Positions 220 through 20,828 of a DNA stretch of 20,828 nt are shown here, piece by piece (within the stretch, counting starts at the first letter, position 1; each line of letters begins with the position of its first letter). The DNA comes from a virus (lineage: Duplodnaviria > Heunggongvirae > Uroviricota > Caudoviricetes): positions 1 through 20,828 of the IMG/VR virus record IMGVR_UViG_2531839668_000013; one strand, 5' to 3'. A model generated the notes under the pieces. It was not told the origin of the DNA and did no database searches. It saw only the letters and a program-made list of their open reading frames with translations. The position numbers and the translations under genes are program-made.

Positions 220-300
220 CGCGAGCACCTCTTCCGGTTTTGTTGATAGTGCCATTTTAGTTAATTTATCTTTATAAAACAAACAGATAAACAAAAGACA

Positions 301-1943: not shown

Positions 1944-1957
1944 TTTTCGTCACCTCC

Positions 1958-4741: not shown

Positions 4742-5313
4742 CAGCGTGACCTGTTCGATAACCTGCTCACCACGTTTGACCGGATTTTGCCGCCGCTGTC
4801 GCCGGGGTGTTTATGGGTATGCAGTACTTTACCGTTTGATGAAAGTTCACCGCCGGTGTGTTCAATGTTGCCGCGCATCGTCCCGCCCTTCTGCACTTCC
4901 AGCGTGCCGGTAATCAGCCTGTTGGTGCAGACCACCTCCGGTGTGTCCAGGGTGACGCGGGTTGATGCTTTCACCATGACCACCGGCACCGTGGCAGTAA
5001 CAGAATCAGAAGCCGTCACGCTGGCCGTTTTAATTCCGCTTACCGTGAGTGCACTGGTTTCAGGTTCATACTCAATCACCGCCCCGTCAGGGAAACGGAT
5101 ATGCAGGGCATCCGCCGACGCCGACGGCGCGGGGTTATCGGCACTTAAATCGCCGTTCGTCTGCGGGTCACTGCCCGGCATCGGGCAAAGACTCACTTTC
5201 GGGCAGGCGTTGTGGACAATCACTGGCGTCGGTGCAGGCGGGGCGCTGGTGCAACCGGCGCACAGCATCAGGCAGGTCAGCGCCATACCAGCGGCGGAAA
5301 TCTTCGTTTTCAT
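4741..5313 (-). CDS. lysC: In-frame fusion ORF: Rz1-like o-spanin lipoprotein LysC N-terminus joined to a C-terminal fragment of baseplate spike V
   Basis: From internal Met: MKTKISAAGMALTCLMLCAGC (signal peptide plus lipobox) and Pro-rich segment, then ...SADALHIRFPDGAVIEYEPETSALTVSG...VLHTHKHPGDSGG (gpV-like with HxH apex motif); starts inside lysB in another frame; stop overlaps E ATG. Confidence 0.65.
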   Translation of the reverse strand: MKTKISAAGMALTCLMLCAGCTSAPPAPTPVIVHNACPKVSLCPMPGSDPQTNGDLSADNPAPSASADALHIRFPDGAVIEYEPETSALTVSGIKTASVTASDSVTATVPVVMVKASTRVTLDTPEVVCTNRLITGTLEVQKGGTMRGNIEHTGGELSSNGKVLHTHKHPGDSGGKIRSNVVSRLSNRSR

Positions 5314-5593
5314 TGAGTAATCTCGTGATGGTTTTCTCGCGCTGAGCTTCACGCTTCGCGGCGTTTTCCAGTTCCTGACGCAGTGCCACCTGCGCCAGCT
5401 CGTTTTTGTCTGCCCTGGTGAGCGCAACATGAAGCTGATTTTTCAGCATGGTGATGGTCGCCTGTTGCTCGCTGGCTACGTTGTTTGCCCTGTCCAGTGA
5501 GGTGCGCAGGCTGGCGTTTTTATGCTTCGCCAGAAACAGACCCGCCACCGCCAGCGATAACAACACGACCAGCACAATCATCAGCCTTGACAT
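5168..5593 (-). CDS. lysB: LysB, Rz-like i-spanin, 141 aa
   Basis: N-terminal transmembrane segment plus coiled-coil periplasmic domain; contains the lysC start in an alternate frame; P2 position. Confidence 0.85.
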   Translation of the reverse strand: MSRLMIVLVVLLSLAVAGLFLAKHKNASLRTSLDRANNVASEQQATITMLKNQLHVALTRADKNELAQVALRQELENAAKREAQREKTITRLLNENEDFRRWYGADLPDAVRRLHQRPACTDASDCPQRLPESESLPDAGQ

Positions 5594-6006
5594 GGTTCCC
5601 GCCCCTCAAAACGCTGACGGCAGGCCGTACGTATCAGCCGGAAGAACACCGATGCCACGAGATAAATCAGCGCGGTAAAAATCCACCCGGCAGCGACCAG
5701 CGAGATAAATGTCGCCACCATCACCACCAGAGCTACTGCCCGTCTGCGCCACGGCACCGGCTGCAAAAACAGCGACGTGACAATCTTCACGGCCAGCGAT
5801 TCCGGCGGCAGCTCCCGTCCGTAGCGTTCCAGTACATACTCAGTGGCATACACACCGACACCACCGGCAACCACACAGATAACCGTCGCCAGAATCGCCC
5901 AGGTGGCGACAAAACTGACGGCCACGCTCTGCGGGTAAATCAGGGACAGTGCCAGCATCAGCGCCAGCGACACATTCAGCATCAGTGAAAGGGATAATTT
6001 CTTCAT
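5581..6006 (-). CDS. lysA: LysA lysis-timing membrane protein, 141 aa
   Basis: Multi-pass hydrophobic protein immediately downstream of the endolysin, as in P2. Confidence 0.8.
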   Translation of the reverse strand: MKKLSLSLMLNVSLALMLALSLIYPQSVAVSFVATWAILATVICVVAGGVGVYATEYVLERYGRELPPESLAVKIVTSLFLQPVPWRRRAVALVVMVATFISLVAAGWIFTALIYLVASVFFRLIRTACRQRFEGREPCQG

Positions 6007-6020
6007 GGTGTTTACTCCGT

Positions 6021-6518
6021 TTAAGCCGGTACGCCGCCAGCGGTACGCCAGACGGTGACCAGTTTTTCCAGTGAATGCTCACGCTGACCGTAACCGGCAC
6101 CCGGCAGGGACGCCCAGATATTGCGACAGCGTGAAATGGCGCGCTCAATGCGTCCCGCCCGGATGTCATCCAGTGCACCGCGTTCGCGGATCAACTGAAT
6201 GGCGAGCCTGTCCTGTGACAACGGACTGAAATCCGGCAGGGCAAGCTGTTTGCGGTAGTGCGGCCAGAACAGGTAAAGCTGCTGATAGCGACCGGAGGCC
6301 GTGGATTTTTCACCGCGACGGTTAAACACCTTCGCCGGTCGGCCATGCGCAAACGGGTGGTCACTGTAGTCAGTGAAAATTTCCGGCTTCCCGTCCAGTC
6401 CGGTGACTATCACGTCATAGCCCCGGTTTTTCGTCAGCGGATGATTCGCCGTCCCTTCGGACACGGCCAGCATGTCGAGAAAGGCCGCGATATTCTGATG
6501 CGTGTTAATTACCGGCAT
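6021..6518 (-). CDS. K: Endolysin K (lysozyme-like), 165 aa
   Basis: Size, position between holin Y and lysA, recalled similarity to P2 gpK. Confidence 0.85.
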   Translation of the reverse strand: MPVINTHQNIAAFLDMLAVSEGTANHPLTKNRGYDVIVTGLDGKPEIFTDYSDHPFAHGRPAKVFNRRGEKSTASGRYQQLYLFWPHYRKQLALPDFSPLSQDRLAIQLIRERGALDDIRAGRIERAISRCRNIWASLPGAGYGQREHSLEKLVTVWRTAGGVPA

Positions 6519-6799
6519 TACTGTTTCCCCCTGCCCTTAAAACGGCGCTGAATGGCAATCTCAATCACCTGATAACCGGCGATACCCAGCATGGAGCCGA
6601 TACCGCACACCGCAGGCAGTGACAGGTCAGGAAACTGCACCAGAACAACACCGGCAACCATCGAGACAAAACCACCGAGCAACATGCGCCCGATAAACAG
6701 ACGCGGGGTGATGGGTTCACCACCGGCAAGCACCTTGCCGACAACAATCAGCACCCCAATCATGAAAAGCGACAGGACGCTTTTTTCTTCTGCTGTCAT
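6518..6799 (-). CDS. Y: Holin Y, 93 aa
   Basis: Small protein with hydrophobic transmembrane segments and basic C-terminus; stop overlaps K start. Confidence 0.85.
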   Translation of the reverse strand: MTAEEKSVLSLFMIGVLIVVGKVLAGGEPITPRLFIGRMLLGGFVSMVAGVVLVQFPDLSLPAVCGIGSMLGIAGYQVIEIAIQRRFKGRGKQ

Positions 6800-6802
6800 G
6801 CG

Positions 6803-7006
6803 TTACTCCCACAGATTGACAGTTTCAGCCACGGGCGCGGTCTGAACGTCGGGCAGTTCGACGGCGGTGCCGTGTGGCAGCACCGCACCCAGTTCAGCCA
6901 GTCCCGGATTTGCGGCGAGCACGGTCTCAACCACGCCCTCAGTGCGCCCGTAATACCGGACACAGATGGCGTCGAGCGTGTCGCCCTGTAGCGCAAAGGT
7001 CTTCAT
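6803..7006 (-). CDS. X: Tail protein X (LysM-like), 67 aa
   Basis: MKTFALQGDTLDAICVRYYGRTEGVV... P2 gpX-like; start trimmed to internal ATG 7004-7006, which overlaps the L stop. Confidence 0.8.
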   Translation of the reverse strand: MKTFALQGDTLDAICVRYYGRTEGVVETVLAANPGLAELGAVLPHGTAVELPDVQTAPVAETVNLWE

Positions 7007-7515
7007 CAGATTTGACTCACGATGCAGCGCGGCTTGTCCTGGATGCGCGCCACTGCCCAGCGCATATCCCGCCACAGCTCATCAATGGTGCTGTCAATGC
7101 TGTCGGCCTTCTTGTCGCCTTTCGCACTGGCATCCACGCCGCGATAACGCTCATAAAGCGATGCGGTTGCCATCGCACACACGGCGCGCTCGTAGTAAAA
7201 AACTTTGATGCTTTCACCGTCGATGTCGTCCGCCGGGACGTCCGCCAGACGCGTAAAACCGGCAGCAATTTTCTGTTCGCGGTACTCGTACAGCTCCGCA
7301 TTCGTCTCCGCCATGCCTGACTTGATGGCCTCACGCAGACGGGCGGGGGCGACGGTCTGCTCAAGGCGCATACGTTCCCGGACGCGCTTCGGGTCGATAT
7401 CGGGAAAAAAGAACGTGTTTTTAATCACCGGCTCGTCGCCTGCCGGTTGCGGGATGACCACCGTACCCTCACCGGACACGGGAGCCTCCTTTCGCGGAAT
7501 AATCAGCGTCATCAT
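7006..7515 (-). CDS. L: Head completion/stabilisation protein L, 169 aa
   Basis: MMTLIIPRKEAPVSGEG... P2 gpL-like; start trimmed from the 189-aa ORF. Confidence 0.8.
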   Translation of the reverse strand: MMTLIIPRKEAPVSGEGTVVIPQPAGDEPVIKNTFFFPDIDPKRVRERMRLEQTVAPARLREAIKSGMAETNAELYEYREQKIAAGFTRLADVPADDIDGESIKVFYYERAVCAMATASLYERYRGVDASAKGDKKADSIDSTIDELWRDMRWAVARIQDKPRCIVSQI

Positions 7516-7614
7516 GACTACCTCTGAAAAGTCGGGCGGTGGACGCCGGTGCAGTGTCAGGTGATTCACCCTCACTGACCGGCGTGCCGCCCTGGCGCGG
7601 GGCGCATTCGGTTG

Positions 7615-8358
7615 TTAACTGGCTTTCTTTTTCGGGCGTCCACGTTTTGCCGGTGTCACGCTCCGGGTCTTACGCGGGGCGCGGGTGGCCGCTTTGGGTT
7701 GCGGCTCCGGCTTCGGTTTCAGCTCCCGCTCCAGTCGTTCAATCTCTTTTTTGACGCCTGCCTGACAGTCGAGCTGTGTCGCACGTTGCAGGTGAGCCAG
7801 CGCACCGGCGGCATCACCACCGTCACGCAGAAACAGACCGGTGATTTTGTGCAGCTTTGCGCGCACTTCATCAGGCATGTCAGCAGCGGCAGTCAGTTCA
7901 AGGGTCTCCGTCAGCAGGCGGGTATCCACAGACTCACCGGCCGCGTGGGCGCGCATGGCCGCAAGCGCCACCTCCTCGGTGAACATGTACGGCGGGGTGC
8001 GGCGGTGTTTACCCGGCATGGTCAGACCGTATTTCAGGGCATAACGGGCAATCTCCAGCGCACCGGCAATATCGCCGGTATCCAGACGCCACAGCATGAC
8101 CGTCATCAGAATGTCATCCTGTGCGCCTTTGCCCTGCTCCAGCACGCCGTTCACCCACGGCAACCAGAACGGCAGCAGTTCGCGCTTTTTCGCGGCCTTC
8201 AGCTCTTTTGAATAAATCGCTTTCAGTGTGCGCTGGTCTGCGGCGAGCTTAACCAGCATCTGCTCATAGACAGTTGCATGTCGCAGCGGGGCGGCTTCCC
8301 GCTGCGCGGTCATCGCTGCCGAGACCCGCATCATGTGGCGCTGTGCGGGACTCGTCAT
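7615..8358 (-). CDS. M: Terminase endonuclease (small) subunit M, 247 aa
   Basis: P2 gpM size and position; basic C-terminal tail. Confidence 0.85.
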   Translation of the reverse strand: MTSPAQRHMMRVSAAMTAQREAAPLRHATVYEQMLVKLAADQRTLKAIYSKELKAAKKRELLPFWLPWVNGVLEQGKGAQDDILMTVMLWRLDTGDIAGALEIARYALKYGLTMPGKHRRTPPYMFTEEVALAAMRAHAAGESVDTRLLTETLELTAAADMPDEVRAKLHKITGLFLRDGGDAAGALAHLQRATQLDCQAGVKKEIERLERELKPKPEPQPKAATRAPRKTRSVTPAKRGRPKKKAS

Positions 8359-8361
8359 CGG

Positions 8362-9435
8362 TTACGCTCCCGGCTCTGCGGTCGCCTTAGCCGGTGTGGA
8401 GAAATCACCGACCTTAATTTTTTCCACCAGACAACCGGCGGCGTAGTCCTCCACCACGTAATCAATGTTCATTGACTCGTAGTTCTCCACGCGGTCGAGT
8501 TTCGGGTTTTCCTCAATCACGCGGCGATGGCTGTCATCCATGTAGTAGATGGACAGGTTTTCCAGCTTCGTGATGAGCATCGCATCCGCCGGGAAGTACG
8601 GGACGCGTACCGCTGGCAGGTTGCCGATGCGTTTCTGGCTGATGATGACGTCAGCGGCCAGCATTTCGCTGTTGTCCTGCTCCTTGTTGACGATGGGAAA
8701 ATACTTGTCCGCCAGTAGCTGACGCCCCACAATCACCACAAGGTCAGGGTCTTCCTGATACCACGGTTCAATCAGGTTGTTGGTCGCATCCATCACCAGT
8801 GCATCAAGGCTGGCATAATCACCGCCCTTACCCACGCGGATGACCTCAGAGGTGGTGTGCCCTTCCTCGTCAGTGACCTTGCTCATCACGCGCGCCGGGG
8901 CTTCATTGCGGTATTTCTGCAGCCAGCCGACCGCCACATCCTGCAGCATCGGATTGCTGCTGCGGTCAGAGGTTTCGGCACGCTTCACGCCGTTAAAACC
9001 GGCCATGATGAAATCAAGGGACTGACGTTTGATAATGGCGTTACGGACACGGAGCTGGAAATCCTGATAACGCGCCCACAGGTCAAGCGTTTTGTAGCGG
9101 ATATAAAAATCGAAGTTAATCTGGTCGCATTCGTACTTGTTTGACGCCAGCTTCGAGAAGTCCTTCGGCTGACGCTCGGTGCCACCGGCAGTGTCGGTGG
9201 TGCTGGCGATGGAGCCGGTGACACCGATACCAATTTTTTCCCCTTTCATTTCGCTGACCGGCACAATGTTGATGCGGGTCAGAAAGTCAGAAGACTCCTG
9301 CATGGTGTTCATCAGGGTCTGGGTGACCGACGGTTCAACGGTGAATTTTTTCGACACATCACCGGCGTCGATGCCGTTCAGTTCGGCAACACGGGACAGG
9401 TAGGCATTAAATTTAAAGCGGGTTTCCTGGCGCAT
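8362..9435 (-). CDS. N: Major capsid protein N, 357 aa
   Basis: P2 gpN size and position between O and M. Confidence 0.9.
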   Translation of the reverse strand: MRQETRFKFNAYLSRVAELNGIDAGDVSKKFTVEPSVTQTLMNTMQESSDFLTRINIVPVSEMKGEKIGIGVTGSIASTTDTAGGTERQPKDFSKLASNKYECDQINFDFYIRYKTLDLWARYQDFQLRVRNAIIKRQSLDFIMAGFNGVKRAETSDRSSNPMLQDVAVGWLQKYRNEAPARVMSKVTDEEGHTTSEVIRVGKGGDYASLDALVMDATNNLIEPWYQEDPDLVVIVGRQLLADKYFPIVNKEQDNSEMLAADVIISQKRIGNLPAVRVPYFPADAMLITKLENLSIYYMDDSHRRVIEENPKLDRVENYESMNIDYVVEDYAAGCLVEKIKVGDFSTPAKATAEPGA

Positions 9436-9493
9436 AGTTTTTCCTGAAATTAAGGGTTAATCGTGAAGGTTTTCCCGGACTGACTGACGCCGG

Positions 9494-10348
9494 TCAGCAG
9501 TTCGTCATCAGGGCGTCACCGCCACCGCCGGTGGCTTTACTGCGGCGCTGCTGGGTCAGACTTTCGGTGTGGTCGAGACTGTTTTTCAGGCGGGTGAATG
9601 CCTGACTGGTTTCATCCGCCCTGTCAGTCACATCCTGCTTAAGTGCGGAAAAGGCGGTTTCCATCTCAGCAAGGCGCTGCTCAGTGGCGCTCAGTTTTTC
9701 CTGCACATGCTCAGCGACAGCGGTCACCGCTTCATGCACGTCATTCAGACGGGCGTCATCGCTGGCCTGTTTGCGGCCAAAAATGGATTTCACCTTTTCG
9801 GTCAGGGCGGTGAACACGGTTTCAGGCAGGTCTTCAAATTCCAGCTCAACAGGCGTTGCCACTGAAATCAGGTTTTCAGGGCTTAATTTGAAGCGGTTCA
9901 GAGGGTTGTGTTTTGCCGTGCGGCAGAATTCCAGGTATTCCGTGCCGAGGCTTGCCGGGTCATCGGTGACGGCCAGACCCACCAGATAACATTTGCCGGT
10001 ATTGGCAAAGTTCGGCTGAATTTCCATTGAGGTATAGACCTTCTGCGCGGCCTTGTTCATCGCGATAAGGTCATCGGTCGGGGTGATTTTCGCAAACAGC
10101 GCCCATTTGCCTTTCAGCGCCGAATCATCGTCAATCTTTTCGGCCTTCAGTTCGACCACATCGCCATAACGCTTAAAAATACCGTCAGGCAGGATGCCGC
10201 GCAGATGTTCCAGGTTAATGCGGCAACCATAGACACGCGGGTCAAAGGTTTCGGCCATTTCCTGAATATCCTGCGCACTGATGACACGCCCGTCACAGGT
10301 GTCACCCTCAACGCCGATACGAAAGAATTTTGAGACTTTTTTTGCCAT
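9494..10348 (-). CDS. O: Capsid scaffolding protein O, 284 aa
   Basis: MAKKVSKFFRIGVEGDTCDG... P2 gpO-like; start trimmed to ATG at 10346-10348. Confidence 0.85.
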   Translation of the reverse strand: MAKKVSKFFRIGVEGDTCDGRVISAQDIQEMAETFDPRVYGCRINLEHLRGILPDGIFKRYGDVVELKAEKIDDDSALKGKWALFAKITPTDDLIAMNKAAQKVYTSMEIQPNFANTGKCYLVGLAVTDDPASLGTEYLEFCRTAKHNPLNRFKLSPENLISVATPVELEFEDLPETVFTALTEKVKSIFGRKQASDDARLNDVHEAVTAVAEHVQEKLSATEQRLAEMETAFSALKQDVTDRADETSQAFTRLKNSLDHTESLTQQRRSKATGGGGDALMTNC

Positions 10349-10521
10349 TGTCAGGAGTCCTGAATAGTGATTAGAGGAGTCACATGTCGGCATCAGTTTC
10401 CCGACGATGCGCATCCTCCGCCATCAGTCCCGGATGGCTTATCACTGACACAACAGCACCTTAGCGAATCGCGGGGCGCGACTCAGTAGCCTTGCCGTGT
10501 ATTCATCACGGCGAGGTATTC

Positions 10522-12294
10522 ATGACCATCACCACAGACACCACTCTTTTACACGACCCGCGTCGTCAGGCGGCGCTGCTGTACTGGCAGGGATTTTCCG
10601 TGCCGCAGATTGCCGCCATGTTGCAGATGAAACGCCCGACGGTGCAGAGCTGGAAACAGCGCGACGGCTGGGACAGCGTTGCCCCCATCAGCCGTGTCGA
10701 AATGAGTCTGGAAGCGCGGCTGACCCAGCTCATTATCAAACCGCAGAAAACCGGCGGTGACTTCAAGGAAATTGACCTGCTCGGACGCCAGATTGAACGA
10801 CTGGCACGGGTCAACCGTTACAGCCAGACCGGCAACGAGGCAGACCTTAATCCGAACGTCGCTAACCGCAACAAAGGCGGGCGGCGCAAACCGAAAAAGA
10901 ATTTTTTCAGTGACGAGGCCATCGAAAAGCTGGAGCAGATTTTCTTTGAGCAGTCTTTCGACTATCAGTTGCACTGGTATCGTGCCGGGCTTGAGCACCG
11001 CATCCGCGATATCCTGAAATCCCGCCAGATTGGCGCAACGTTTTATTTTTCCCGCGAGGCGCTGCTGCGCGCCCTGAAAACCGGCCATAACCAGATTTTT
11101 CTGTCGGCCAGTAAAACGCAGGCGTATGTGTTCCGTGAATACATCATCGCCTTTGCCCGGCTGGTTGACGTTGACCTGACCGGTGACCCGATTGTCCTGG
11201 GCAATAACGGCGCAAAACTGATTTTTCTCGGCACCAACTCCAACACCGCACAGAGCCATAACGGCGACCTGTACGTCGACGAGATTTTCTGGATCCCGAA
11301 TTTTCAGGTACTGCGTAAGGTGGCATCAGGTATGGCCTCACAGAGTCACCTGCGCTCGACCTATTTCTCCACCCCGTCCACGCTGGCGCACGACGCCTAC
11401 CCGTTCTGGTCGGGTGAACTGTTTAACCGGGGACGCGCCAGCGCCGCCGAACGCGTGGAAATCGACGTCAGTCATAACGCTCTTGCCGGTGGTCTTCTCT
11501 GTGCGGACGGCCAGTGGCGGCAGATTGTCACCATTGAGGACGCCCTGAAAGGCGGCTGCACATTGTTCGACATTGAGCAGCTCAAACGCGAAAACAGCGC
11601 CGACGATTTTAAAAACCTGTTCATGTGTGAATTTGTTGACGACAAGGCATCGGTGTTCCCGTTCGAGGAGCTGCAACGCTGCATGGTCGACACGCTGGAA
11701 GAATGGGAAGACTATGCGCCGTTTGCCGCGAATCCGTTCGGCTCCCGCCCGGTATGGATTGGTTACGACCCGTCACACCGTGGCGACAGCGCCGGATGCG
11801 TGGTACTGGCACCTCCGGTGGTGGCCGGTGGCAAATTCAGAATACTTGAGCGTCACCAGTGGAAAGGCATGGACTTTGCCACTCAGGCTGAATCTATCCG
11901 CAAACTCACCGAGAAATACAACGTCGAATACATCGGTATTGATGCCACCGGCCTCGGTGTCGGCGTGTTCCAGCTCGTGCGCTCGTTCTATCCCGCCGCA
12001 CGCGACATCCGCTACACGCCGGAAATGAAAACCGCAATGGTGCTCAAGGCAAAAGACGTTATCCGCCGTGGCTGTCTGGAATATGACGTCAGCGCCACCG
12101 ACATCACCAGCTCGTTTATGGCTATCCGCAAGACCATGACCAGCAGCGGACGCAGCGCCACCTATGAGGCCAGCCGCAGCGAGGAAGCCAGCCACGCAGA
12201 CCTCGCCTGGGCGACCATGCACGCCCTGTTAAATGAGCCACTCACCGCCGGTATCAGCACCCCGCTGACATCCACCATTCTGGAGTTTTACTGA
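10522..12294 (+). CDS. P: Terminase ATPase (large) subunit P, 590 aa
   Basis: MTITTDTTLLHDPRRQAALLYWQGFSVPQIAAM... P2 gpP-like; divergent from O; RBS gagg upstream of the trimmed start. Confidence 0.9.
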   Translation: MTITTDTTLLHDPRRQAALLYWQGFSVPQIAAMLQMKRPTVQSWKQRDGWDSVAPISRVEMSLEARLTQLIIKPQKTGGDFKEIDLLGRQIERLARVNRYSQTGNEADLNPNVANRNKGGRRKPKKNFFSDEAIEKLEQIFFEQSFDYQLHWYRAGLEHRIRDILKSRQIGATFYFSREALLRALKTGHNQIFLSASKTQAYVFREYIIAFARLVDVDLTGDPIVLGNNGAKLIFLGTNSNTAQSHNGDLYVDEIFWIPNFQVLRKVASGMASQSHLRSTYFSTPSTLAHDAYPFWSGELFNRGRASAAERVEIDVSHNALAGGLLCADGQWRQIVTIEDALKGGCTLFDIEQLKRENSADDFKNLFMCEFVDDKASVFPFEELQRCMVDTLEEWEDYAPFAANPFGSRPVWIGYDPSHRGDSAGCVVLAPPVVAGGKFRILERHQWKGMDFATQAESIRKLTEKYNVEYIGIDATGLGVGVFQLVRSFYPAARDIRYTPEMKTAMVLKAKDVIRRGCLEYDVSATDITSSFMAIRKTMTSSGRSATYEASRSEEASHADLAWATMHALLNEPLTAGISTPLTSTILEFY

Positions 12295-13328
12295 TGAGCA
12301 AGAAAAAAGGGAAAACACCGCAACCTGCGGCAAAAAAAATGACTGCCAGCGCCCCGAAAATGGAGGCATTCACCTTTGGCGAGCCGGTGCCGGTACTCGA
12401 CCGCCGTGACATTCTGGATTACGTCGAGTGCATCAGTAACGGCAGATGGTATGAGCCACCGGTCAGCTTTACCGGCCTGGCAAAAAGTCTGCGTGCTGCC
12501 GTGCATCACAGCTCGCCGATTTACGTCAAACGCAATATTCTGGCCTCGACATTTATCCCGCATCCGTGGCTTTCCCAGCAGGATTTCAGCCGCTTTGTGC
12601 TGGATTTTCTGGTGTTCGGTAATGCGTTTCTGGAAAAGCGTTACAGCACCACCGGTAAGGTCATCAGACTGGAAACCTCACCGGCAAAATATACCCGCCG
12701 TGGCGTGCAAGAGGATGTTTACTGGTGGGTGCCGTCCTTCAACGAGCCGACAGCCTTCGCGCCCGGCTCCGTGTTTCACCTGCTGGAGCCGGATATTAAT
12801 CAGGAGCTGTACGGCCTGCCGGAATATCTCAGCGCCCTTAATTCTGCCTGGCTGAATGAATCAGCCACACTGTTCCGCCGCAAGTATTACGAAAACGGCG
12901 CTCATGCCGGATACATCATGTACGTCACTGATGCCGTGCAGGATCGCAACGATATCGAAATGCTCCGCGAAAACATGGTGAAGTCGAAAGGCCGCAACAA
13001 CTTTAAAAATCTGTTTCTCTATGCCCCACAGGGGAAAGCCGACGGCATCAAAATTATCCCGCTCAGTGAAGTGGCAACGAAGGACGATTTTTTTAATATC
13101 AAAAAAGCCAGCGCCGCTGACCTGCTGGACGCGCACCGCATCCCCTTTCAGTTGATGGGCGGCAAGCCGGAGAACGTCGGGTCGCTGGGTGATATTGAGA
13201 AAGTGGCAAAGGTCTTTGTCCGCAATGAGCTTATCCCGTTACAGGACAGGATCCGCGAAATAAACGGCTGGCTCGGTCAGGAGGTCATCCGATTTAAAAA
13301 CTACTCACTGGACACTGACAACGGCTGA
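12294..13328 (+). CDS. Q: Portal (capsid vertex) protein Q, 344 aa
   Basis: P2 gpQ size and position, immediately upstream of cos; start overlaps P stop. Confidence 0.9.
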   Translation: MSKKKGKTPQPAAKKMTASAPKMEAFTFGEPVPVLDRRDILDYVECISNGRWYEPPVSFTGLAKSLRAAVHHSSPIYVKRNILASTFIPHPWLSQQDFSRFVLDFLVFGNAFLEKRYSTTGKVIRLETSPAKYTRRGVQEDVYWWVPSFNEPTAFAPGSVFHLLEPDINQELYGLPEYLSALNSAWLNESATLFRRKYYENGAHAGYIMYVTDAVQDRNDIEMLRENMVKSKGRNNFKNLFLYAPQGKADGIKIIPLSEVATKDDFFNIKKASAADLLDAHRIPFQLMGGKPENVGSLGDIEKVAKVFVRNELIPLQDRIREINGWLGQEVIRFKNYSLDTDNG

Positions 13329-13333
13329 ACATC

Positions 13334-13355
13334 GCCGCCTGCGGGCGGCTTTTTT
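13334..13355 (+). terminator. Intrinsic terminator after Q
   Basis: GCCGCC-tgcg-GGCGGC hairpin followed by TTTTTT. Confidence 0.7.
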
Positions 13356-13497
13356 ACACCCCGTCATCACCCCCTCACACGCTCACCACCGCACAAAACA
13401 CCCCGCAGACACACCAACGCCTCAACGGGCAGACTAAGCGCCGTCACGACGCGCTGAGACGCTGAAAAAATAAAATCCGCACCACCGCCAGCGCGCA

Positions 13498-13516
13498 GTG
13501 CTTTCCCCGCCTCGCC
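13498..13516. other. cos: cos cohesive-end site (P2 19-nt cos)
   Basis: gtgctttccccgcctcgcc is the exact reverse complement of the P2 cohesive end GGCGAGGCGGGGAAAGCAC. Confidence 0.85.
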
Positions 13517-13661
13517 CGCCCGCTTCATGGGGCGGTTTTAATGCAGTTGCAATACCGCTTTTGAGCCACGCCAGTCCTGGCGGACGCACAGCCAGAACAT
13601 GTAACTCCGGCACATGCAAAACCATGCACAGATAAAAACGGGGATATCACAGAAAAAGCAC

Positions 13662-13688
13662 AAAAAAACCGGCATTCATGGTGCCGGT
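13662..13688 (-). terminator. Intrinsic terminator for minus-strand transcripts leaving the cargo island
   Basis: ACCGGCA-ttcatgg-TGCCGGT stem; the minus strand reads the hairpin followed by a T-run. Confidence 0.6.
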
Positions 13689-13827
13689 TCTGATCAATTT
13701 TTATAGTTGTCACTGGCCGCGCAATGTACCAATCACACTGTTGAGGCACGTACTGACAACAATTAGCAGAAAAATCGTTGTCCACGGACTTTCATAAATG
13801 TGAGATAACATCTTGATATAGATCATT

Positions 13828-14022
13828 TTATTTACTCATTCTGATGTGATTTAACAGGTATTTTATAACGACCATAAGCTCATCTTTACTGGCTTGTTCA
13901 ACCATTTTTTCAGTGTAACTGTCCACCTCGCGTGAGCTCAGGTCGTTATTTGAGGCCATTACAGTTAGCCTCTTTGCCCAGTCGGCATAAGGGTCTTTAA
14001 TTGATGAAAGGGAACTATGCAT
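13828..14022 (-). CDS. Hypothetical small protein (65 aa from internal Met; ORF extends to 14109)
   Basis: ORF in AT-rich cargo DNA with a downstream minus-strand terminator; no recognisable family; weak RBS. Confidence 0.4.
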   Translation of the reverse strand: MHSSLSSIKDPYADWAKRLTVMASNNDLSSREVDSYTEKMVEQASKDELMVVIKYLLNHIRMSK

Positions 14023-14452
14023 GTCCAAAAATCTCGAATTATTCAACCAACAGACGGCAGAAATCTTTGCGGTGCTATGGGATAACTTTCCTGTACCACA
14101 AGTCATCACCTACAAAAAATTTAACGCCGCGTTACCTGATGACTACTTTGACCAACTTAACTCACCAGAAATGAAAGCACTGAATCAGTTGCGTAGTGTG
14201 GTTGATGGCACATTCACTTTCTTAAGCGAAAACGGCTATATTCTGTACGGAACAGACCATCAGACCGGTTTTCATGATGTGCGACTGACCGAGAAAGCAC
14301 TCGCGGTGCTCAACAAAAAACCCGAAGCACTTGGCGGTAATGAAACGATGGGAGATAAGATTATCAGCGCAGTGAAGGACGGGACACCTGGTGTTATTGC
14401 CGGTGCAGTAACAAACCTGCTTACCCTCGGTGTCAATCTGATAACTAGCTAA
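14021..14452 (+). CDS. Hypothetical protein, 143 aa, with C-terminal Gly/Ala-rich hydrophobic segment
   Basis: Long ORF in AT-rich DNA; AGGGA-like RBS about 8 nt upstream; followed by terminator-like hairpin; no recognised family. Confidence 0.6.
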   Translation: MSKNLELFNQQTAEIFAVLWDNFPVPQVITYKKFNAALPDDYFDQLNSPEMKALNQLRSVVDGTFTFLSENGYILYGTDHQTGFHDVRLTEKALAVLNKKPEALGGNETMGDKIISAVKDGTPGVIAGAVTNLLTLGVNLITS

Positions 14453-14465
14453 CGCCTTACTTCAC

Positions 14466-14510
14466 CTCCGCCAGCACTGAAAGCAAGTTTCAGCACCGGC
14501 GGAGTTTCTT
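14466..14510 (+). terminator. Terminator-like compound hairpin after the 143-aa gene
   Basis: CTCCGCC...GGCGGAG outer stem with inner CTGAAA/TTTCAG stem, followed by TTTCTT. Confidence 0.5.
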
Positions 14511-14560
14511 AAATTTGTTCCATCTCAAACATTGAGATATCTTTTTCATTTCACCCGGAA

Positions 14561-14998
14561 TTACTTAATTACATTAAAGGTGAATCCCTTTACCCCTCGA
14601 CCAAAAACAGCCCCTCCATCCGATATATAAACAGAATTATCACAAAGACATATATCACCAAATGAATACTTTCCAAGCAAGTCTTTATAAATAGAAATAA
14701 GCTCTTGAGCCACATAAGGAATCATTAATTTTGATAACCCTTGTCCCCGCTCACTTTGCTTAACCCAAACATAATCTATTTGATATATTACAGCGTCCTC
14801 TGTAGATTCAATGATGAATGAACAAAAACCTATTTTCTCATTATCGTCATTCACCACTGCCACCACACTCACAAAATTACTGCAAAGTGCCTGATTATAC
14901 TTCTCCTCTGCTACGCTACAACAATCTTCAAAATCCCCGACTCCCAAAGAGATATCGGTGATAACATTCCCTTTCTTATCAATGCAAACTCTTACCAT
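14561..14998 (-). CDS. GNAT-family N-acetyltransferase-like protein, 145 aa
   Basis: Motif VWVKQSERGQGLSKLM resembles the GNAT acetyl-CoA binding motif (R-x-x-G-x-G) preceded by beta-strand-like segments; AGGT RBS; 45 bp downstream of A on the same strand. Confidence 0.55.
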   Translation of the reverse strand: MVRVCIDKKGNVITDISLGVGDFEDCCSVAEEKYNQALCSNFVSVVAVVNDDNEKIGFCSFIIESTEDAVIYQIDYVWVKQSERGQGLSKLMIPYVAQELISIYKDLLGKYSFGDICLCDNSVYISDGGAVFGRGVKGFTFNVIK

Positions 14999-15043
14999 AT
15001 ATAATTACCTGGCGTTATCTTGACACATTATTTATCAATAAGT

Positions 15044-17314
15044 TTAATCCACAAACCCCGGCCACTCATCAGTGACCGGATACGTGAATTTTTTCCCGCC
15101 ATAATTTACGGTTGCCCCACGCGCCAGCGCCTCAAGCTCCCATCGCTGCGGCCTGATACCGTTCTGAGCAAGGTCAACGCGGATACGGGTGATTTGCATT
15201 CGTTCCGACCGGGTCAGTCTGGCCGATGGCGCAATTTCATGTGGTTTTAACGGACTTCCGTTTCTTTGCTGACGGTTTGGCGTTCGCAGGTCGTGTTTTA
15301 ATGCGCCCCTGAGCGCCCTCACGACCTCCGGTTCATTCCATTCGATAACACCGTCATCAACCAGATTAAGCACTGCTGCGGCGTGCTCAGAAGGCGTGGG
15401 AGCCGGTAACGAAGTATCACCACCAGTGAGCTTTCCACAGTTATTGACAGGACTCCGAGGCGCGGCGATGCCGCTTTTTAAAGTCAAAGGCTCAACGACC
15501 GGCACTTTCGGAACAATGCGCCAGTCCATCGTTCTGGTGATATGAATATGACGCGCGCCGAGATGCGGCGCGTAAATGCCGACCACTCTCTCGACTTCTT
15601 CCTCGTACTCGTTAACTTCATCCGACGGACTACGGGCAACCCTGACAGTCTGACAATCGCGCGGAACATTTGCCCCACCCTGCGCGCTGATATACAACGC
15701 AAAATCACCACTGTCTGCGGCAGCGCGTGCAGCCTCGACGCGTTCGTCAAACTCATCAGCAATGCTGACGCCGCGAGGCAATTTGCGTAGTTCACGGTAA
15801 GCCCCCATTGTCGGCAGGCCAACCGTTTTAAATTGCGGAATGCGCCACGTTGACGCCCATGCGGTAACAGCCGCGGCAGTGTCTTTCAGCGGCCTGCCGG
15901 TATCGTTATCGAGCTGACCATCCAGTGCATAGCCATCGATGTTTTTTGAGATGTATTTCGCGATATATCCCGCAGCACCGCCCCGGTTAAGGTGTTTTGC
16001 CTGAAAACGGTTTCGCGCGGCTCCTCTTTCGTCACCATCCTCTTTGAGCGCATAGCGACGCATGATTTCGATAATCTGGTTACGCTGGCGTGGATTACAA
16101 AAAAGCATCATATGCCAGTGCGGCGTTCCGTCGTGGTGTGGCTCGACGACTCGCAAACCGTAGACCTGTAAATCATTATCCTTGAATGCCGTGCGCATCA
16201 GGCTCCAGATGCGGCAGAGATAACGCTGCGCATCCTTTGGATTAAATGCCTCATCATTCCAGCCGTGATTTAGCTGGACGGTTTTACTTTCGCCTTTTCC
16301 GACCTGACGTGTCGGGTGATACTTTGACGGCGCGGTCAGAGTGATAAACATCCCCACATCACCCTCTGCGGCGGCGTAACGCTCAATACCGGCGATGGTG
16401 TTCATCAGCTCCATCCGGCGAATTTCAGGATTAGAAATACTGCCCATCACCTTACTGATAAGGTCGATGCGCTCGCCGGTTTCCCTGTTTTCGAGGTCAC
16501 ACGATTTAAGAAATTCCAGATTTGCCTGGCGGCGTGCACGCACATCACGAATGGCATGTTTACTGGCATAAGGAGAACGGTCTTTATTGACCTCCCCGAC
16601 AGCAATCAGTAACGCCTCATGCCAGCGCATACGCTGGCCTTTAAGCTGATGAGTCCACCACTCATCGTTAAACAGACGGGCAATGGCAGAATATGCCTGC
16701 CTCGTGGTCATCTGTCCTTTACGGTATTTTTTCCAGTAGAGAGGGGAAATATTGAAAGCACGTGCAGCGCCAGCAACATGACCATACAGATGCGCCTGCG
16801 CCTCATCTGTAAACAGCGATTCTTTCTCGCCATGTGCATCAACCCATGCATCGCAGAGTTCCTCATACATCATGAAAAGCTGCGATGAGATACGGGCGGC
16901 AAACTTTTTCAGCTCCTTGTCATTCATCCCCGGCAGACGCGCATAATGGTCACGCTCTGCCAGAAACAGCAACGACGCGTCGGTGTTCATTTCATGGCGC
17001 TGATTCACGCGCTCAATACGCGGCCATAAACGGCGCTGAAAAGTGGATGTGAGGAAATAAAACCCGTGCACCGGGCTTTTATTGCGCCGGATGTAGTCAT
17101 AGCGTGAAGTAAACAGCGAGCGCAAAAAGTAAGGCAGGCGATTAATCGTGGATAAAACACCTTGCACCTGACGCATCTCGTCACGTGTAAGGGGTCTTTC
17201 GCGCCCGACGGCCTCGCGTGGCGCGTTCCATGCATAAGCACCGGTAAACGTCTCACCGGTGCCTGCGGCAAATGCTGACGGAGGGACAAAACGCCCGGAG
17301 GCTTTAACGGCCAT
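15044..17314 (-). CDS. A: Replication initiation protein A (rolling-circle nickase), about 756 aa
   Basis: P2 gpA-like throughout (PHWHMMLF, YIAKYISK active-site region); start trimmed to MAVKASGRF. Confidence 0.9.
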   Translation of the reverse strand: MAVKASGRFVPPSAFAAGTGETFTGAYAWNAPREAVGRERPLTRDEMRQVQGVLSTINRLPYFLRSLFTSRYDYIRRNKSPVHGFYFLTSTFQRRLWPRIERVNQRHEMNTDASLLFLAERDHYARLPGMNDKELKKFAARISSQLFMMYEELCDAWVDAHGEKESLFTDEAQAHLYGHVAGAARAFNISPLYWKKYRKGQMTTRQAYSAIARLFNDEWWTHQLKGQRMRWHEALLIAVGEVNKDRSPYASKHAIRDVRARRQANLEFLKSCDLENRETGERIDLISKVMGSISNPEIRRMELMNTIAGIERYAAAEGDVGMFITLTAPSKYHPTRQVGKGESKTVQLNHGWNDEAFNPKDAQRYLCRIWSLMRTAFKDNDLQVYGLRVVEPHHDGTPHWHMMLFCNPRQRNQIIEIMRRYALKEDGDERGAARNRFQAKHLNRGGAAGYIAKYISKNIDGYALDGQLDNDTGRPLKDTAAAVTAWASTWRIPQFKTVGLPTMGAYRELRKLPRGVSIADEFDERVEAARAAADSGDFALYISAQGGANVPRDCQTVRVARSPSDEVNEYEEEVERVVGIYAPHLGARHIHITRTMDWRIVPKVPVVEPLTLKSGIAAPRSPVNNCGKLTGGDTSLPAPTPSEHAAAVLNLVDDGVIEWNEPEVVRALRGALKHDLRTPNRQQRNGSPLKPHEIAPSARLTRSERMQITRIRVDLAQNGIRPQRWELEALARGATVNYGGKKFTYPVTDEWPGFVD

Positions 17315-17579
17315 ATGAGCCAAAAGCCTCTGAACAACGCTTGCTGAGTTGCTCAACCTGCGCGTTTAAATCAGCAAAAGACTTTGCGCTTCCGGTCAGA
17401 ATATCGTGATGCATCAGGCCGGAAACAAGCTGGCTTAATTTCGGGTAATAACCAACCACCGCCAGCCATTCCTGACCGGCGTTTTTACCGCTTTCAGCTC
17501 TCTTTTTCTCGTGGAGAATAAACTGAAAGCTGTCACTGGTAACGACATAACGTTCGCCAATTTCAATACGAATACTCAT
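17304..17579 (-). CDS. Small early-operon protein, P2 orf83-position, 91 aa
   Basis: Position immediately upstream of A; unknown function. Confidence 0.6.
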   Translation of the reverse strand: MSIRIEIGERYVVTSDSFQFILHEKKRAESGKNAGQEWLAVVGYYPKLSQLVSGLMHHDILTGSAKSFADLNAQVEQLSKRCSEAFGSYGR

Positions 17580-17800
17580 GCCGTTCTCCGGTAATGTTTG
17601 TTTTTTGCTTCAAAGACTGACTGGCAGGAAACACAACGCGTGGCTGACGGATAAGCCGCACGACGGGCAGCAGGTATTGGCGCGTCACACTCTTCGCAAA
17701 CCAGCGCAGAAACACCGCAATGCTTTACCCTTGCCGCGTTAATCTGGCGCTCCAGTAATTCAGCCTGTTGTTCCTGAATAAAATCTACGTTGTCCGGCAT
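17576..17800 (-). CDS. TraR/DksA-like C4 zinc-finger protein, 74 aa
   Basis: C-x2-C ... C-x2-C spacing (CEECDAPIPAARRAAYPSATRCVSC) typical of the TraR family; P2 orf82 position. Confidence 0.7.
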   Translation of the reverse strand: MPDNVDFIQEQQAELLERQINAARVKHCGVSALVCEECDAPIPAARRAAYPSATRCVSCQSVFEAKNKHYRRTA

Positions 17801-18105
17801 TACCAGTTCCTTTTGTCGTTAAGGTTTTTAAATTCATCAGCGCAATAGCTGGCGATTTCTGTCGTTAATTTCGTCAGTTCATCCACGGAGGAGATTTGCT
17901 TGTTAAATACAGCGCGTTTCACAAGTAAATTGACCACATCAGACAGGAGGTTTAATTCGTTCTGATAAATCGCGATAACAGACTCAGTTATTTCGCGTTT
18001 TTCTTTATCAAGACCAAGTTGAATAAGAGATAAATCGCCATTTTTCATAACGGCGATTTTTAAGGCGTTATTCAGTAATACAACTGAACGAGAACAGGAC
18101 ATCAA
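17800..18105 (-). CDS. Hypothetical AT-rich early-operon protein, 101 aa
   Basis: ORF with start and stop overlapping neighbours (ATGA junctions); noticeably AT-rich relative to flanking genes. Confidence 0.55.
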
Positions 18106-18326
18106 AGCACCTCCCCGCGAGACAATCCGATATTGTGAAATTTTTCCGACTCCTGACTGAGCAGCTCGACTATCTCCACGCGGGATAACTCCGCCTTTGT
18201 GATGTGGCGAATCATGGCGTCAAGATGAGAAGAAAAGCGCGTCGCTGCGTCGGCCTGTGCTTCGGTTCTGGCCTGTTGCAGCAGTAATGCGTATTTACCG
18301 CACTGATTTTCAGAAACTGTATGCAT
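18102..18326 (-). CDS. Small early-operon protein, P2 orf80-position, 74 aa from MHTVSENQ
   Basis: GGAG RBS 6 nt upstream of internal ATG at 18324-18326; the ORF extends to 18359. Confidence 0.55.
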
Positions 18327-18389
18327 GACTTTCTCCAGGCAAAAAGAAGCCCCGCACAATTAAGTGCGTTAAAAACTCTGGTTAATTAC

Positions 18390-18890
18390 TTAATGCAGAT
18401 ATTGCTCTGGTTTTACCGACGTCAGAATTGTCGGTGCATACTCAAACAGACTGAATAATTCACGTAATGCACGGAATAAAGCATCACGCCAGTAACATGA
18501 TTCTTCATTAATGCGCCAGTACGGCTGATTGAATTCTTTTTCTGTCAATCCCGCATGCATAAATAAAGTGCGACGCTGACTGACTGTTAAAAAACTAATA
18601 TATGCATACTCACTCGCGCCAACCTGACGACGTTTTGAGAATGCCCCACGCAATTCATCAATTGCACATACCAGTCGTTCACGTTCGACGTCGTTCATTT
18701 CTTCAAAACGCATCGTTGCGTGACGCTGTTTTAACTGCGCATGAAAGCAAACCGTTAGCCGTTCGCGCTCCATCATCTGATTATAATAATCACATGTATC
18801 CTGCCAGCGAGGAACGGCAAGATGCTTACCAATTATCCGGCGCATAGCTGCTGGCTGTTTTTCAACGAGATTGAGCGTCATCACTGTCAT
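18390..18890 (-). CDS. B: Replication protein B (helicase loader), 166 aa
   Basis: MTVMTLNLVEKQPAAMRRIIGKHLAVPRWQDTCDYYNQMMERERL... P2 gpB-like. Confidence 0.85.
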   Translation of the reverse strand: MTVMTLNLVEKQPAAMRRIIGKHLAVPRWQDTCDYYNQMMERERLTVCFHAQLKQRHATMRFEEMNDVERERLVCAIDELRGAFSKRRQVGASEYAYISFLTVSQRRTLFMHAGLTEKEFNQPYWRINEESCYWRDALFRALRELFSLFEYAPTILTSVKPEQYLH

Positions 18891-19057
18891 TCCCATACCC
18901 TCCGGCTTTTCAGAAAGGTCAGAGCCTTTTTTAACGGACTCTGTTTTTTGGTGCGGATAATGATTCCCTTACGCCCCTTACCGTGGGTGATGGTGAAGTC
19001 AATCGCCCTGGGGCTTTCGTTACGCAGTAACTGAGCAATACAACGCGGTTCACTCAT
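18887..19057 (-). CDS. Small protein, P2 orf78-position (start uncertain: 19057 or 19084)
   Basis: ORF between cox and B; basic C-terminus. Confidence 0.5.
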   Translation of the reverse strand: MSEPRCIAQLLRNESPRAIDFTITHGKGRKGIIIRTKKQSPLKKALTFLKSRRVWE

Positions 19058-19059
19058 AA

Positions 19060-19332
19060 TCACAACCCCATCCACAAAAGCCATGCATCACGCTGTTCAA
19101 CTGGTCGGTTATAAAACGCCTCTCGTACAGCGCGATTAAACTCTGGAATGAAAACCCACTTCTCACCGACACGAGCGTTCGGCTTACTTGGATCACGAAG
19201 CTCAATAACTGGCAATTTATTCTCTTTTACCATCTTGACTACAGCCGTTTCTGGCTTACCAAGTAACTCTGCAAACTTAACCGTATGTACCGCATCAATC
19301 GGGTACTGAATCACATAGTCATTGACTTCCAT
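19060..19332 (-). CDS. cox: Cox (excisionase and repressor of the lysogenic promoter), 90 aa
   Basis: First gene of the early operon, divergent from C; ...KLPVIELRDPSKPNARVGEKWVFIPEFN... resembles P2 Cox. Confidence 0.8.
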   Translation of the reverse strand: MEVNDYVIQYPIDAVHTVKFAELLGKPETAVVKMVKENKLPVIELRDPSKPNARVGEKWVFIPEFNRAVREAFYNRPVEQRDAWLLWMGL

Positions 19333-19371
19333 TGATTAGCCCTTTTTGCTTTCGTGTTACCCTTATTAGAT

Positions 19372-19413
19372 CCAGTCCCTTCTAGGTCGCCCCTGTCCTT
19401 TCTAGGGACTGGC
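19372..19413. promoter_or_regulatory. Repeat cluster GTCC(C/T)TTCTAGG x2 within an inverted repeat CCAGTCCCT...AGGGACTGG: putative Cox or second operator at the lysogenic promoter
   Basis: Direct repeats at 19375-19386 and 19395-19406; inverted 9-bp arms at 19372-19380 and 19405-19413. Confidence 0.4.
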
Positions 19414-19426
19414 TAACACACTCAAA

Positions 19427-19473
19427 AGGTCACCAATACACAACCTTTTGACGGGAATATAAGTCACCAATAG
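19427..19473. promoter_or_regulatory. Direct repeats AGGTCACCAATAC / AAGTCACCAATAG flanking the candidate Pe -10: putative C repressor operator half-sites
   Basis: Two 10/10 identical GTCACCAATA copies at 19429-19438 and 19463-19472, 34 bp centre to centre. Confidence 0.45.
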
Positions 19474-19484
19474 GTTACTGTCAA
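19456..19484 (-). promoter_or_regulatory. Candidate early promoter Pe (minus strand: TTGACA - 17 bp - TATATT)
   Basis: Near-consensus sigma70 -35/-10 on the minus strand pointing toward cox; -35 abuts the C start codon; flanked by direct repeats. Confidence 0.5.
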
Positions 19485-19778
19485 ATGCAGACATTCGAAA
19501 AACTGAAAGCGATTAGGAAAGCAGAAGGCTTAACACAGGCGAAATTCAGCGAAATTAGCGGGATAGCTCTAGGAACAGTCAAAAATTACGAAAGTGGGCA
19601 TAAAGACCCTGGTCTCAGCATCGTTATGCGAGTCACAAATACGCCTTTATTTAAAAAATATACGCTCTGGTTAATGACTGGTGATACGTCACCACAAGCT
19701 GGTCAGATCGCGCCGGCTCTCGCACACATTGGGCAAAAACCAACAGAATCAGACCACTCCGAAAAACAGACTGGTTAA
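19485..19778 (+). CDS. C: Immunity repressor C, 97 aa
   Basis: HTH-containing small protein; ...KYTLWLMTGDTSPQAGQIAPALAHIGQ... resembles the P2 C C-terminus; divergent from cox, upstream of int. Confidence 0.8.
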   Translation: MQTFEKLKAIRKAEGLTQAKFSEISGIALGTVKNYESGHKDPGLSIVMRVTNTPLFKKYTLWLMTGDTSPQAGQIAPALAHIGQKPTESDHSEKQTG

Positions 19779-19847
19779 CACTCTATAAACATTACATTTT
19801 CACTATTTGTTACCAAGATGGTGAATACAGCGTCAGAGGGCTTTCTT

Positions 19848-20828
19848 ATGTCAATTAAGAAGCTCGATGATGGACGCTATGAAGTGGACATTAGACCTCG
19901 CGGTCGCGACGGAAAACGCATCCGCAGGAAATTTGAAAGAAAAGCTGAGGCTGTAGCATTTGAGCGATACACAATCGCCTACGCCAGCCAGAAAGAATGG
20001 GCAGGTCAGCGAGCAGATCGCAGAACTTTGAGTGAGTTGCTGGACATCTGGTGGAAATATCACGGGCAAAACCACGAGCATGGAACAAAAGAGTTTAATC
20101 ATCTGCTCAAAACCATCAGCGGCATAGGTGATATACCAGTGAGCCGGATGAGCAAAAGAGCTTTGATGGATTATCGTTCCATGCGACTACGTGATGGTAT
20201 CAGTGCCGCAACGATAAACCGTGACATGTACCGATTATCCGGCATGTTCACAAAATTAATTCAATTGGATGAATTTTCCGGGCAACACCCAATTCACGGA
20301 CTGCCGCCACTGGCGGAGGCCAACCCTGAAATGACGTTCCTGGAAAAAGCAGAAATCGAAAAACTGTTAAATGTTTTGGATGGTGATGACTTACTTGTCG
20401 CACTTTTATGTCTGAGCACTGGAGGAAGATGGACGGAAGTTGCCACGCTAAAACCAGCACAGATTACAAATTGCAGGGTTACCTTCCTGAAAACCAAAAA
20501 CGGTAAAAAGCGAACCGTGCCGATTTCTGAGGAACTGGAGAAAAAAGTTAAAGAGGAGGCCAGCGCTAAATTATTCAAAGTTGATTATGAGAAGTTTTGC
20601 GGGATTTTACGCAGAGTGAAGCCAGATATACCACCCAATCAGGCAACCCACATCCTGCGGCATACATTCGCAAGCCATTTCATGATGAATGGGGGCAATA
20701 TAATCGCACTGCAACAGATTCTGGGACATGCGAGCATTCAGCAGACGATGGCCTATGCGCACCTTGCGCCTGACTACCTGCAAAATGCCGTCGCACTGAA
20801 TCCTCTAAAAGGCGGAGTGACGTTATAA
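19848..20828 (+). CDS. int: Tyrosine integrase, about 326 aa
   Basis: MSIKKLDDGRYEVDIRPRGRDGKRIRRKFE... P2 Int-like with tyrosine recombinase C-terminal motifs (HILRHTF...LGHASIQQTMAYAH); start trimmed to RBS-preceded ATG; stop TAA at the window end. Confidence 0.85.
   Translation: MSIKKLDDGRYEVDIRPRGRDGKRIRRKFERKAEAVAFERYTIAYASQKEWAGQRADRRTLSELLDIWWKYHGQNHEHGTKEFNHLLKTISGIGDIPVSRMSKRALMDYRSMRLRDGISAATINRDMYRLSGMFTKLIQLDEFSGQHPIHGLPPLAEANPEMTFLEKAEIEKLLNVLDGDDLLVALLCLSTGGRWTEVATLKPAQITNCRVTFLKTKNGKKRTVPISEELEKKVKEEASAKLFKVDYEKFCGILRRVKPDIPPNQATHILRHTFASHFMMNGGNIIALQQILGHASIQQTMAYAHLAPDYLQNAVALNPLKGGVTL

Follow-up and report, generated by a model that had tools for sequence, protein, structure and literature searches.

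An intact P2-type cos site beside complete packaging genes in a P2-like prophage with deleted tail genes

The presence of an exact P2-type cohesive-end sequence next to packaging genes in an element that has lost most of its tail genes raises the question whether such DNA can still be cut and packaged by a P2-type terminase, and what this would mean for the mobility of the element and its cargo. The locus was analyzed in a stretch of viral DNA of 20,828 nucleotides (IMG/VR record IMGVR_UViG_2531839668_000013), which is called the window throughout. With a probability of roughly 0.7, we regard the site as the genuine cos of a Peduovirus prophage with WPhi-type immunity, from which approximately 8.4 kb of tail genes have been lost very recently via two illegitimate deletions at short microhomologies. 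The cohesive-end 19-mer is a P2-type cos, i.e., already known biology inherited from an intact parent, and does not represent a new mobilisation system. The features of the window are collected in Table 1.

Table 1. Features of the window. P2 proteins were compared with the window by tblastn, and amino acid identities refer to the P2 counterparts; blocks with P2 coordinates stem from the blastn comparison with P2 NC_001895.
Feature	Position	Strand	Evidence or P2 correspondence
Block ogr, D, U, T, E'	3-4786		P2 24252-19460
ogr, late-gene activator, intact	1-219	-	100%, 72/72 aa
Internal fragment of baseplate gene V, 361 bp	4780-5140	-	bounded by the two deletion junctions; P2 10930-10571
Block lysB through Q, then cosL	5133-13516		P2 8382-1
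L, head completion protein, intact	7006-7515	-	99.4%, 169/169 aa
M, terminase small subunit, intact	7615-8358	-	99.2%, 247/247 aa, without stops
N, major capsid protein, intact	8362-9435	-	99.4%, 357/357 aa
O, scaffold/protease, intact	9494-10348	-	99.3%, 284/284 aa
Divergent late promoters PP/PO and Ogr activator site	10349-10521	.	173/173 identical to P2 2994-3166
P, terminase large (ATPase) subunit, intact	10522-12294	+	100%, 590/590 aa, without stops
Q, portal protein, intact	12294-13328	+	99.1%, 343/344 aa, without stops
tQ, rho-independent terminator of the P-Q operon	13334-13349	+	terminator-like scan; corresponds to P2 tQ annotation
55-bp cos core common to P2, P4 and 186	13491-13545	-	TGCATTAAAACCGCCCCATGAAGCGGGCG + 19-mer + TGCGCGC
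19-nt cohesive-end sequence, cos nick-to-nick segment	13498-13516	-	equals cosL/cosR annotation of P2 NC_001895
Block cosR side	13498-13545		P2 33593-33546
GC-rich hairpin CCGCCC/GGGCGG, then T-run	13516-13535	+	terminator-like scan; in the cos core, abuts the 19-mer
Block replacing old, tin, orf91	13546-15053		no P2 match
Hotspot cargo replacing P2 old/tin/orf91	13546-15043	.	no P2 match; two hypotheticals and a weak GNAT acetyltransferase
Inverted repeat CGCCAGGACTGGCG	13569-13582	.	between core and distal motif; in P4 and 186, absent from P2
Distal conserved motif TGCATGGTTTTGCATG	13613-13628	-	~95-110 bp from the nick, cargo side
64-aa hypothetical	13828-14022	-
143-aa hypothetical	14021-14452	+
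Weak GNAT acetyltransferase	14561-14998	-	Pfam: borderline GNAT match only
A, rolling-circle replication initiator	15044-17314	-	98.3% over 754 aa; ori nick region near 15456
Block A through orf78	15054-19058		P2 30294-26290
Block heterologous int-C-cox	19059-20828		weak or no P2 match
WPhi-type switch/integration module	19060-20828	.	cox 19060-19332 (-), C 19485-19778 (+), int 19848-20828 (+)

The cohesive-end sequence GGCGAGGCGGGGAAAGCAC has a single exact match in the window, on the minus strand, as the initial annotation had stated; no further match was found in the window with up to three mismatches, and none appeared in 100 dinucleotide-preserving shuffles. Its distance from the portal gene, previously given as 170 bp, also holds, since it starts 169-170 nt downstream of the last position of the Q ORF (13328), compared with 168 nt in P2. 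The site is placed between Q (after tQ) and the hotspot/replication gene A, as in P2. When the circular junctions of P2, P4 and 186 were reconstructed and aligned with the window, the sole block conserved in all four was TGCATTAAAACCGCCCC-N-TGAAGCGGGCG followed by the 19-mer and TGCGCGC, exactly 55 bp, which agrees with the "55-bp core" of Ziermann & Calendar 1990 as that core is cited in PMC5694545 and PMC2231350. The core of the window is identical to that of P2 at 54 of 55 positions, and the single difference (13528) is found in the loop of the hairpin, where the window has the base of phage 186; this loop position is naturally variable. The cohesive end, its position and the terminase proteins are thus the same as in the P2/P4/186 cos, from which the window differs by the loop substitution, and three deposited phage genomes (pro147, 9W and OU784746) contain the exact 55-mer of the window. 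The hairpin stem is conserved in P2, P4 and 186. However, the cos core folded as single-stranded DNA had an energy no better than that of shuffles (z = -0.31), hence, no thermodynamic claim is made for the hairpin, and conservation is its sole support. A search of the whole window against Rfam gave no match at the gathering threshold. By all sequence criteria open to testing, the site belongs to the P2/P4/186 cos family. From the P2 annotation, nicks are predicted 5' of 13516 on the minus strand and 5' of 13498 on the plus strand, i.e., between 13516 and 13517 (-) and between 13497 and 13498 (+), which would leave 19-nt 5' overhangs.

Outside the core, the 95 bp on the cosR flank are of the 186/P4 type and less like P2. 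The distal motif, in the form TGCATG-N-TTTGCATG, is conserved in P2, P4, 186 and two further prophages (L006 and L007), whereas the sequence between the core and this motif diverges. It might possibly act as an accessory terminase-binding or recognition element, for which its conservation makes it a candidate.

The comparison with P2 revealed that the window corresponds to a permuted integrated P2 genome bounded by the stop codons of ogr and int. Its int-C-cox region matches phage WPhi at 99.7% identity and phages vB_EcoM-12474II-V at 100%, while int, C and cox share only 43-52% amino acid identity with their P2 counterparts. Judged by these matches, the window is a P2-like (Peduovirus) prophage whose immunity and integration are of the WPhi type. 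WPhi and the vB_EcoM-12474 phages, which are P2-like and heteroimmune to P2, have structural and replication genes approximately 97.5% identical to those of the window; in contrast to them, the window is devoid of 8.4 kb of tail genes and carries a different hotspot cargo. As a separate observation, equivalents of Trp64 and Thr67 of P2 C are conserved in the WPhi-type C repressor, but that of Ile70 is not; the P4 epsilon-insensitive sos mutation lies at Thr67.

The closest relative of the window is an intact prophage in E. coli O157:H16 str. 98-3133 (NZ_CP051001.1, ~989.4-1019.0 kb), which is inserted between cpxP and fieF. Over all retained sequence, including cos and cargo, both are 100% identical at the nucleotide level, and the sole differences are two short-microhomology deletions of 8.4 kb in total. 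Deletion 1 (positions 3028-10159 of the sister prophage, L002) took away FII, FI, the invertase, the tail-fibre genes, I, J and W in addition to the start of E and the 3' part of V, and deletion 2 (10520-11833) S and R together with the 5' part of V and the 3' part of lysC; all of these genes are retained in the sister prophage, V and lysC at full length. Junction A near 4786/4787 displays a TT microhomology (2 nt) and junction B at 5136-5140 the microhomology TATCG (5 nt), which, read from the junction sequences, are the signature of illegitimate recombination and not of repeat collapse by an assembler. The element had been described as tail-less, which largely holds: no tblastn match was obtained in the window for R, S, W, J, I, H, G, FI and FII, V is reduced to residues 84-205 and E to residues 11-91 (the first 10 codons are lost), while X, T, U and D are still present. 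As a full P2-like tail module was not found, the window does not represent a complete plaque-forming P2-like phage. With the 47-bp att core in the sister prophage taken as reference, the parent would measure ~29.6 kb and the deleted element ~21.1 kb on excision; the att sites are situated outside the window and are deduced only from the sister.

The deletion appears to be restricted to this record. A 31-mer across junction A occurred in 0 of 5,426 complete E. coli genomes, the deletion junction had no other copy in IMG/VR, GTDB representative genomes or JGI metagenomes, the junction-spanning fusion ORF has no record in the exact-protein index, and the deletion was not seen in ten contigs with the identical cargo protein (24 of 1,369 index blocks). 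Since the junction was matched nowhere and the divergence from the intact prophage is zero, the deletion is recent and, as far as visible, unique. The same zero divergence from a complete phage, which indicates very recent descent, explains why cos is intact here. Hence, the presence of cos reflects recent ancestry and not selection for a tail-less lifestyle, and the window is a freshly decayed prophage of the WPhi/P2 type, in which the packaging module is intact and the cos site an ordinary feature.

The deletions also affected genes next to the junctions. At junction B (4741-5313, minus strand) the first 59 codons of lysC, which encodes the o-spanin lipoprotein, are fused in frame to the V fragment, which results in a chimeric ORF of 190 aa. 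The spanin pair is probably defective though LysB is intact, and the truncation of LysC with its fusion to the V fragment may impair release. T, U and D (window 301-4786) are intact but without their own late promoter PF, and PV is deleted as well. These genes now follow the PO operon, and the terminator that lay in between is gone; therefore, their expression by read-through is possible.

With regard to packaging, M, P and Q are indeed intact, as the initial annotation had it, and the cognate terminase pair gpM and gpP is full length in the window. This extends to all head, packaging and regulatory proteins, which are full length with 98-100% identity to P2, and, at 94-100% amino acid identity, to the wider set of head, packaging, lysis, replication and late-control genes with the exception of LysC. 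The head, packaging, replication, lysogeny and late-control modules of a P2-like phage are all present, the o-spanin LysC being truncated. B is intact (99.4% amino acid identity to P2), and 79 of 81 positions around the P2 ori nick site are identical in the window. At the sequence level, every cis site and trans factor that packaging requires is intact. Because cos and the whole 55-bp core lie beside an intact cognate set of terminase, portal and capsid genes, the DNA should be recognisable by a P2-type terminase. The earlier claim that it is packageable by such an enzyme stands in so far as the full cos core and the cognate terminase are intact, however, derepression, excision and replication would have to come first.

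The order of events is suggested by what is known from P2 and P4. The P2-type terminase prefers covalently closed circles, and cleavage at the 55-bp cos generates 19-nt cohesive ends (PMC2231350). Derepression, excision and replication are needed before packaging owing to this preference. In a proposed pathway, loss or inactivation of the C repressor, either spontaneous or due to an anti-repressor, would allow Int and Cox to release a circle of ~21 kb, A and B would produce monomer circles by rolling-circle replication, and Ogr would switch on the PP/PO late promoters. Then, gpM and gpP would cut the closed circle at the two predicted nick positions in cos, the DNA would be pumped into gpN/gpO/gpQ proheads, the heads would be completed by gpL, and lysis driven by Y and K would free DNA-filled, tail-less and non-infectious heads. 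For infectious transfer, tails from a co-resident or co-infecting P2-like phage would be needed. It has been reported that gpM and gpP are required for packaging and that gpL completes the heads (PMC7552001). Moreover, P4 cos cosmids of 5-10 kb, down to ~43% of the genome length, were packaged and delivered, and capsids of tail-less mutants yield DNA (PMC2231350). The 21-kb circle corresponds to ~63% of the P2 length and 71% of that of the parent. In view of the cosmid and tail-less-mutant precedents, a circle of this size should be tolerated, and filling of the heads should not depend on tails; thus, by analogy, packaging of the ~21-kb circle into tail-less heads is plausible, whereas the stability of a 21-kb genome in T=7 heads is suggested only by analogy with the P4 cosmids. 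In situ packaging of the lateral type, starting from the chromosomal cos, was set aside, because the window contains one cos and the terminase prefers closed circles; a single chromosomal cos would be a non-preferred substrate.

How the prophage could be induced is a related point. P2 lysogens release phage spontaneously at a low rate. The C repressors of P2-like phages are not cleaved with the help of RecA and the phages cannot be induced by UV or mitomycin C (PMC1904268, PMC2669165); derepression of P2-type prophages is rare (PMC1904268). In the window, no LexA box was found with up to three mismatches to the consensus and no CTGT-N8-ACAG. An SOS control resembling the tum arrangement of phage 186 was also considered and rejected, since the window has neither a LexA box nor, in the cargo, a tum-like gene (Pfam, PADLOC). 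A test with mitomycin C is poorly suited and probably would give a false negative, because the repressors are not RecA-cleaved and a LexA box is missing. A heteroimmune helper could supply Ogr, tails and terminase in trans, and alone it would not derepress the resident early operon, the derepression of which is needed for excision and for the cis-acting, A-dependent replication. The packaging and transfer of defective prophages with the help of others has been documented in E. coli O157 (PMC2669165). Potential partners are not rare, as a cos region of the P2/P4 type occurs in ~45% of complete E. coli genomes. In the genome of the sister strain 98-3133, three cos-like and two tail-sheath-like places were detected; therefore, this strain probably carries further P2- or P4-like elements, which are possible helpers or satellites.

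The cargo beyond cos has its own history. An index lists the identical 143-aa protein in 1,369 blocks, and PADLOC did not find a known defence system in the cargo. P2-like prophages carrying the pair of the 143-aa protein and the GNAT protein differ in their int/att modules, of which there are at least three. These prophages usually carry an additional module of an AAA_21/AAA_15 ATPase and a 145-aa protein between Q and cos, with the Q-to-cos spacer being replaced, and the homology of the window to them (98.7%) reaches from ~13492 through the cargo into A. The homology edge near 13492 together with the replaced spacer makes the cos core a mosaic boundary flanked on either side by variable loci. 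Variable hotspots flanking cos have been described by Rousset et al. (PMC9122126). The association with at least three int/att modules and the homology edge at the cos core fit recombinational exchange at such cos-flanking hotspots. Compared with packaging, recombination would be the better-evidenced route for movement of the cargo, as far as can be read from sequence. The initial annotation had regarded the site as relevant to the mobilisation of the element and its cargo; there is no sign of such spread, given the unique junction and the 100% identity to an intact prophage.

Other readings of the site have to be weighed against a recent descent from an intact phage. In one of these, which we consider rather unlikely, cos is an inert relic that has stayed perfect in sequence only for want of time since the deletions; derepression, excision and packaging never occur in the host, so that the site is without present function and without a part in the movement of the cargo, which spreads instead by homologous recombination with incoming P2-like phages. 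Dead remnants agree with it, because a prophage of E. coli H2 (L006, NZ_CP028733.1) with a truncated portal gene and without terminase as well as a second one (L014, LRKB01000022.1) with a truncated terminase have both kept the exact 19-mer. The lack of the junction in all collections searched, the repressors that escape SOS cleavage in combination with the missing LexA box, and the occurrence of the same cargo pair with several int/att modules and homology from the edge of the cos core are also in line with it. However, the components for excision, replication, late transcription and packaging are all intact and identical to those of deposited phages, and the low-rate spontaneous release from P2 lysogens likewise speaks against a completely silent element. 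That the tail deletions are an artefact of assembly or sequence processing, and that the true locus is an ordinary complete P2-like prophage with a normal cos, appears very improbable. The complete identity to the intact prophage outside the two junctions would fit such an artefact, as would a junction and a fusion ORF that are on no other record, but assemblers do not collapse sequences at microhomologies of 2 and 5 nt in the absence of long repeats, and other P2 remnants display patchwork deletions leaving gene islands as well.

Two further readings assign a role to the heads themselves. The element could be an evolved head-only satellite similar to the capsid-forming PICIs (cf-PICIs), which would make its own DNA-filled tail-less capsids and use foreign P2-type tails. 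In favor of this, capsid, terminase and cos are present and sheath, tube, baseplate and fibres absent, the cf-PICIs prove that such a lifestyle exists (bioRxiv 10.1101/2025.02.11.637232), and the frequency of P2/P4-type cos regions in E. coli makes potential partners common. Nevertheless, we regard it as extremely unlikely, because there is no lineage but a unique junction with zero divergence from the intact parent, the leftover T, U, D, X and gene fragments point to decay instead of streamlining, and satellite-type regulation is missing. It is improbable, though somewhat less remote, that the element acts as a spontaneous head-only P2 derivative, i.e., a de novo capsid-forming satellite, in which T=7 heads with ~21 kb of DNA, set free upon derepression and supplied with tails by a co-resident or neighbouring P2-like phage, would move the cargo.

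The window was also compared with known systems. The predicted product resembles that of the cf-PICIs, i.e., self-packaged tail-less capsids needing foreign tails (bioRxiv 10.1101/2025.02.11.637232). In the window, capsid and terminase genes are present and most tail genes gone, with T, U, D, X and fragments remaining. However, cf-PICIs are conserved and widespread satellite lineages with their own regulation, whereas the window is a one-off phage deletion derivative, whose junction is found in no other genome of the collections searched and which shows 0% divergence from an intact prophage. Sp13 of E. coli O157 Sakai is likewise a defective P2-like prophage, the DNA of which could still be packaged or moved with the help of other prophages (PMC2669165), but Sp13 has no genes of its own for heads and packaging and needs other prophages for them, whereas in the window these genes are intact and only tails are missing. 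With P4 cosmids and P4-like satellites the window shares the cos core, and in this system closed circles are cut and packaged by the P2 terminase and sub-genome lengths are tolerated (PMC2231350). In contrast, P4-like satellites do not encode capsid or terminase, and an element of 21 kb cannot fit into P4-size heads. P4-like satellites are characterized by an alpha primase, sid/psu/delta/epsilon and the absence of capsid genes; the window does not fit this set, as it has a P2 backbone and only the cos core in common with P4.

If filled tail-less heads that borrow tails could be shown, the element would provide a natural example of a single-step transition from a phage to a tail-dependent satellite. 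It would then offer a momentary view of how elements of the cf-PICI type could originate from phages, and at the same time a route for moving cargo of the cos-proximal hotspot. For annotators, the main point is that an exact cos 19-mer alone is no evidence of function or mobility, because dead P2 remnants keep the same 19-mer exactly. In the two remnants mentioned above, patchwork deletions have left small gene islands, and the hotspot cargo as well as the replication/immunity half are retained. The hotspot cargo of the remnant in E. coli H2 is a NACHT protein.
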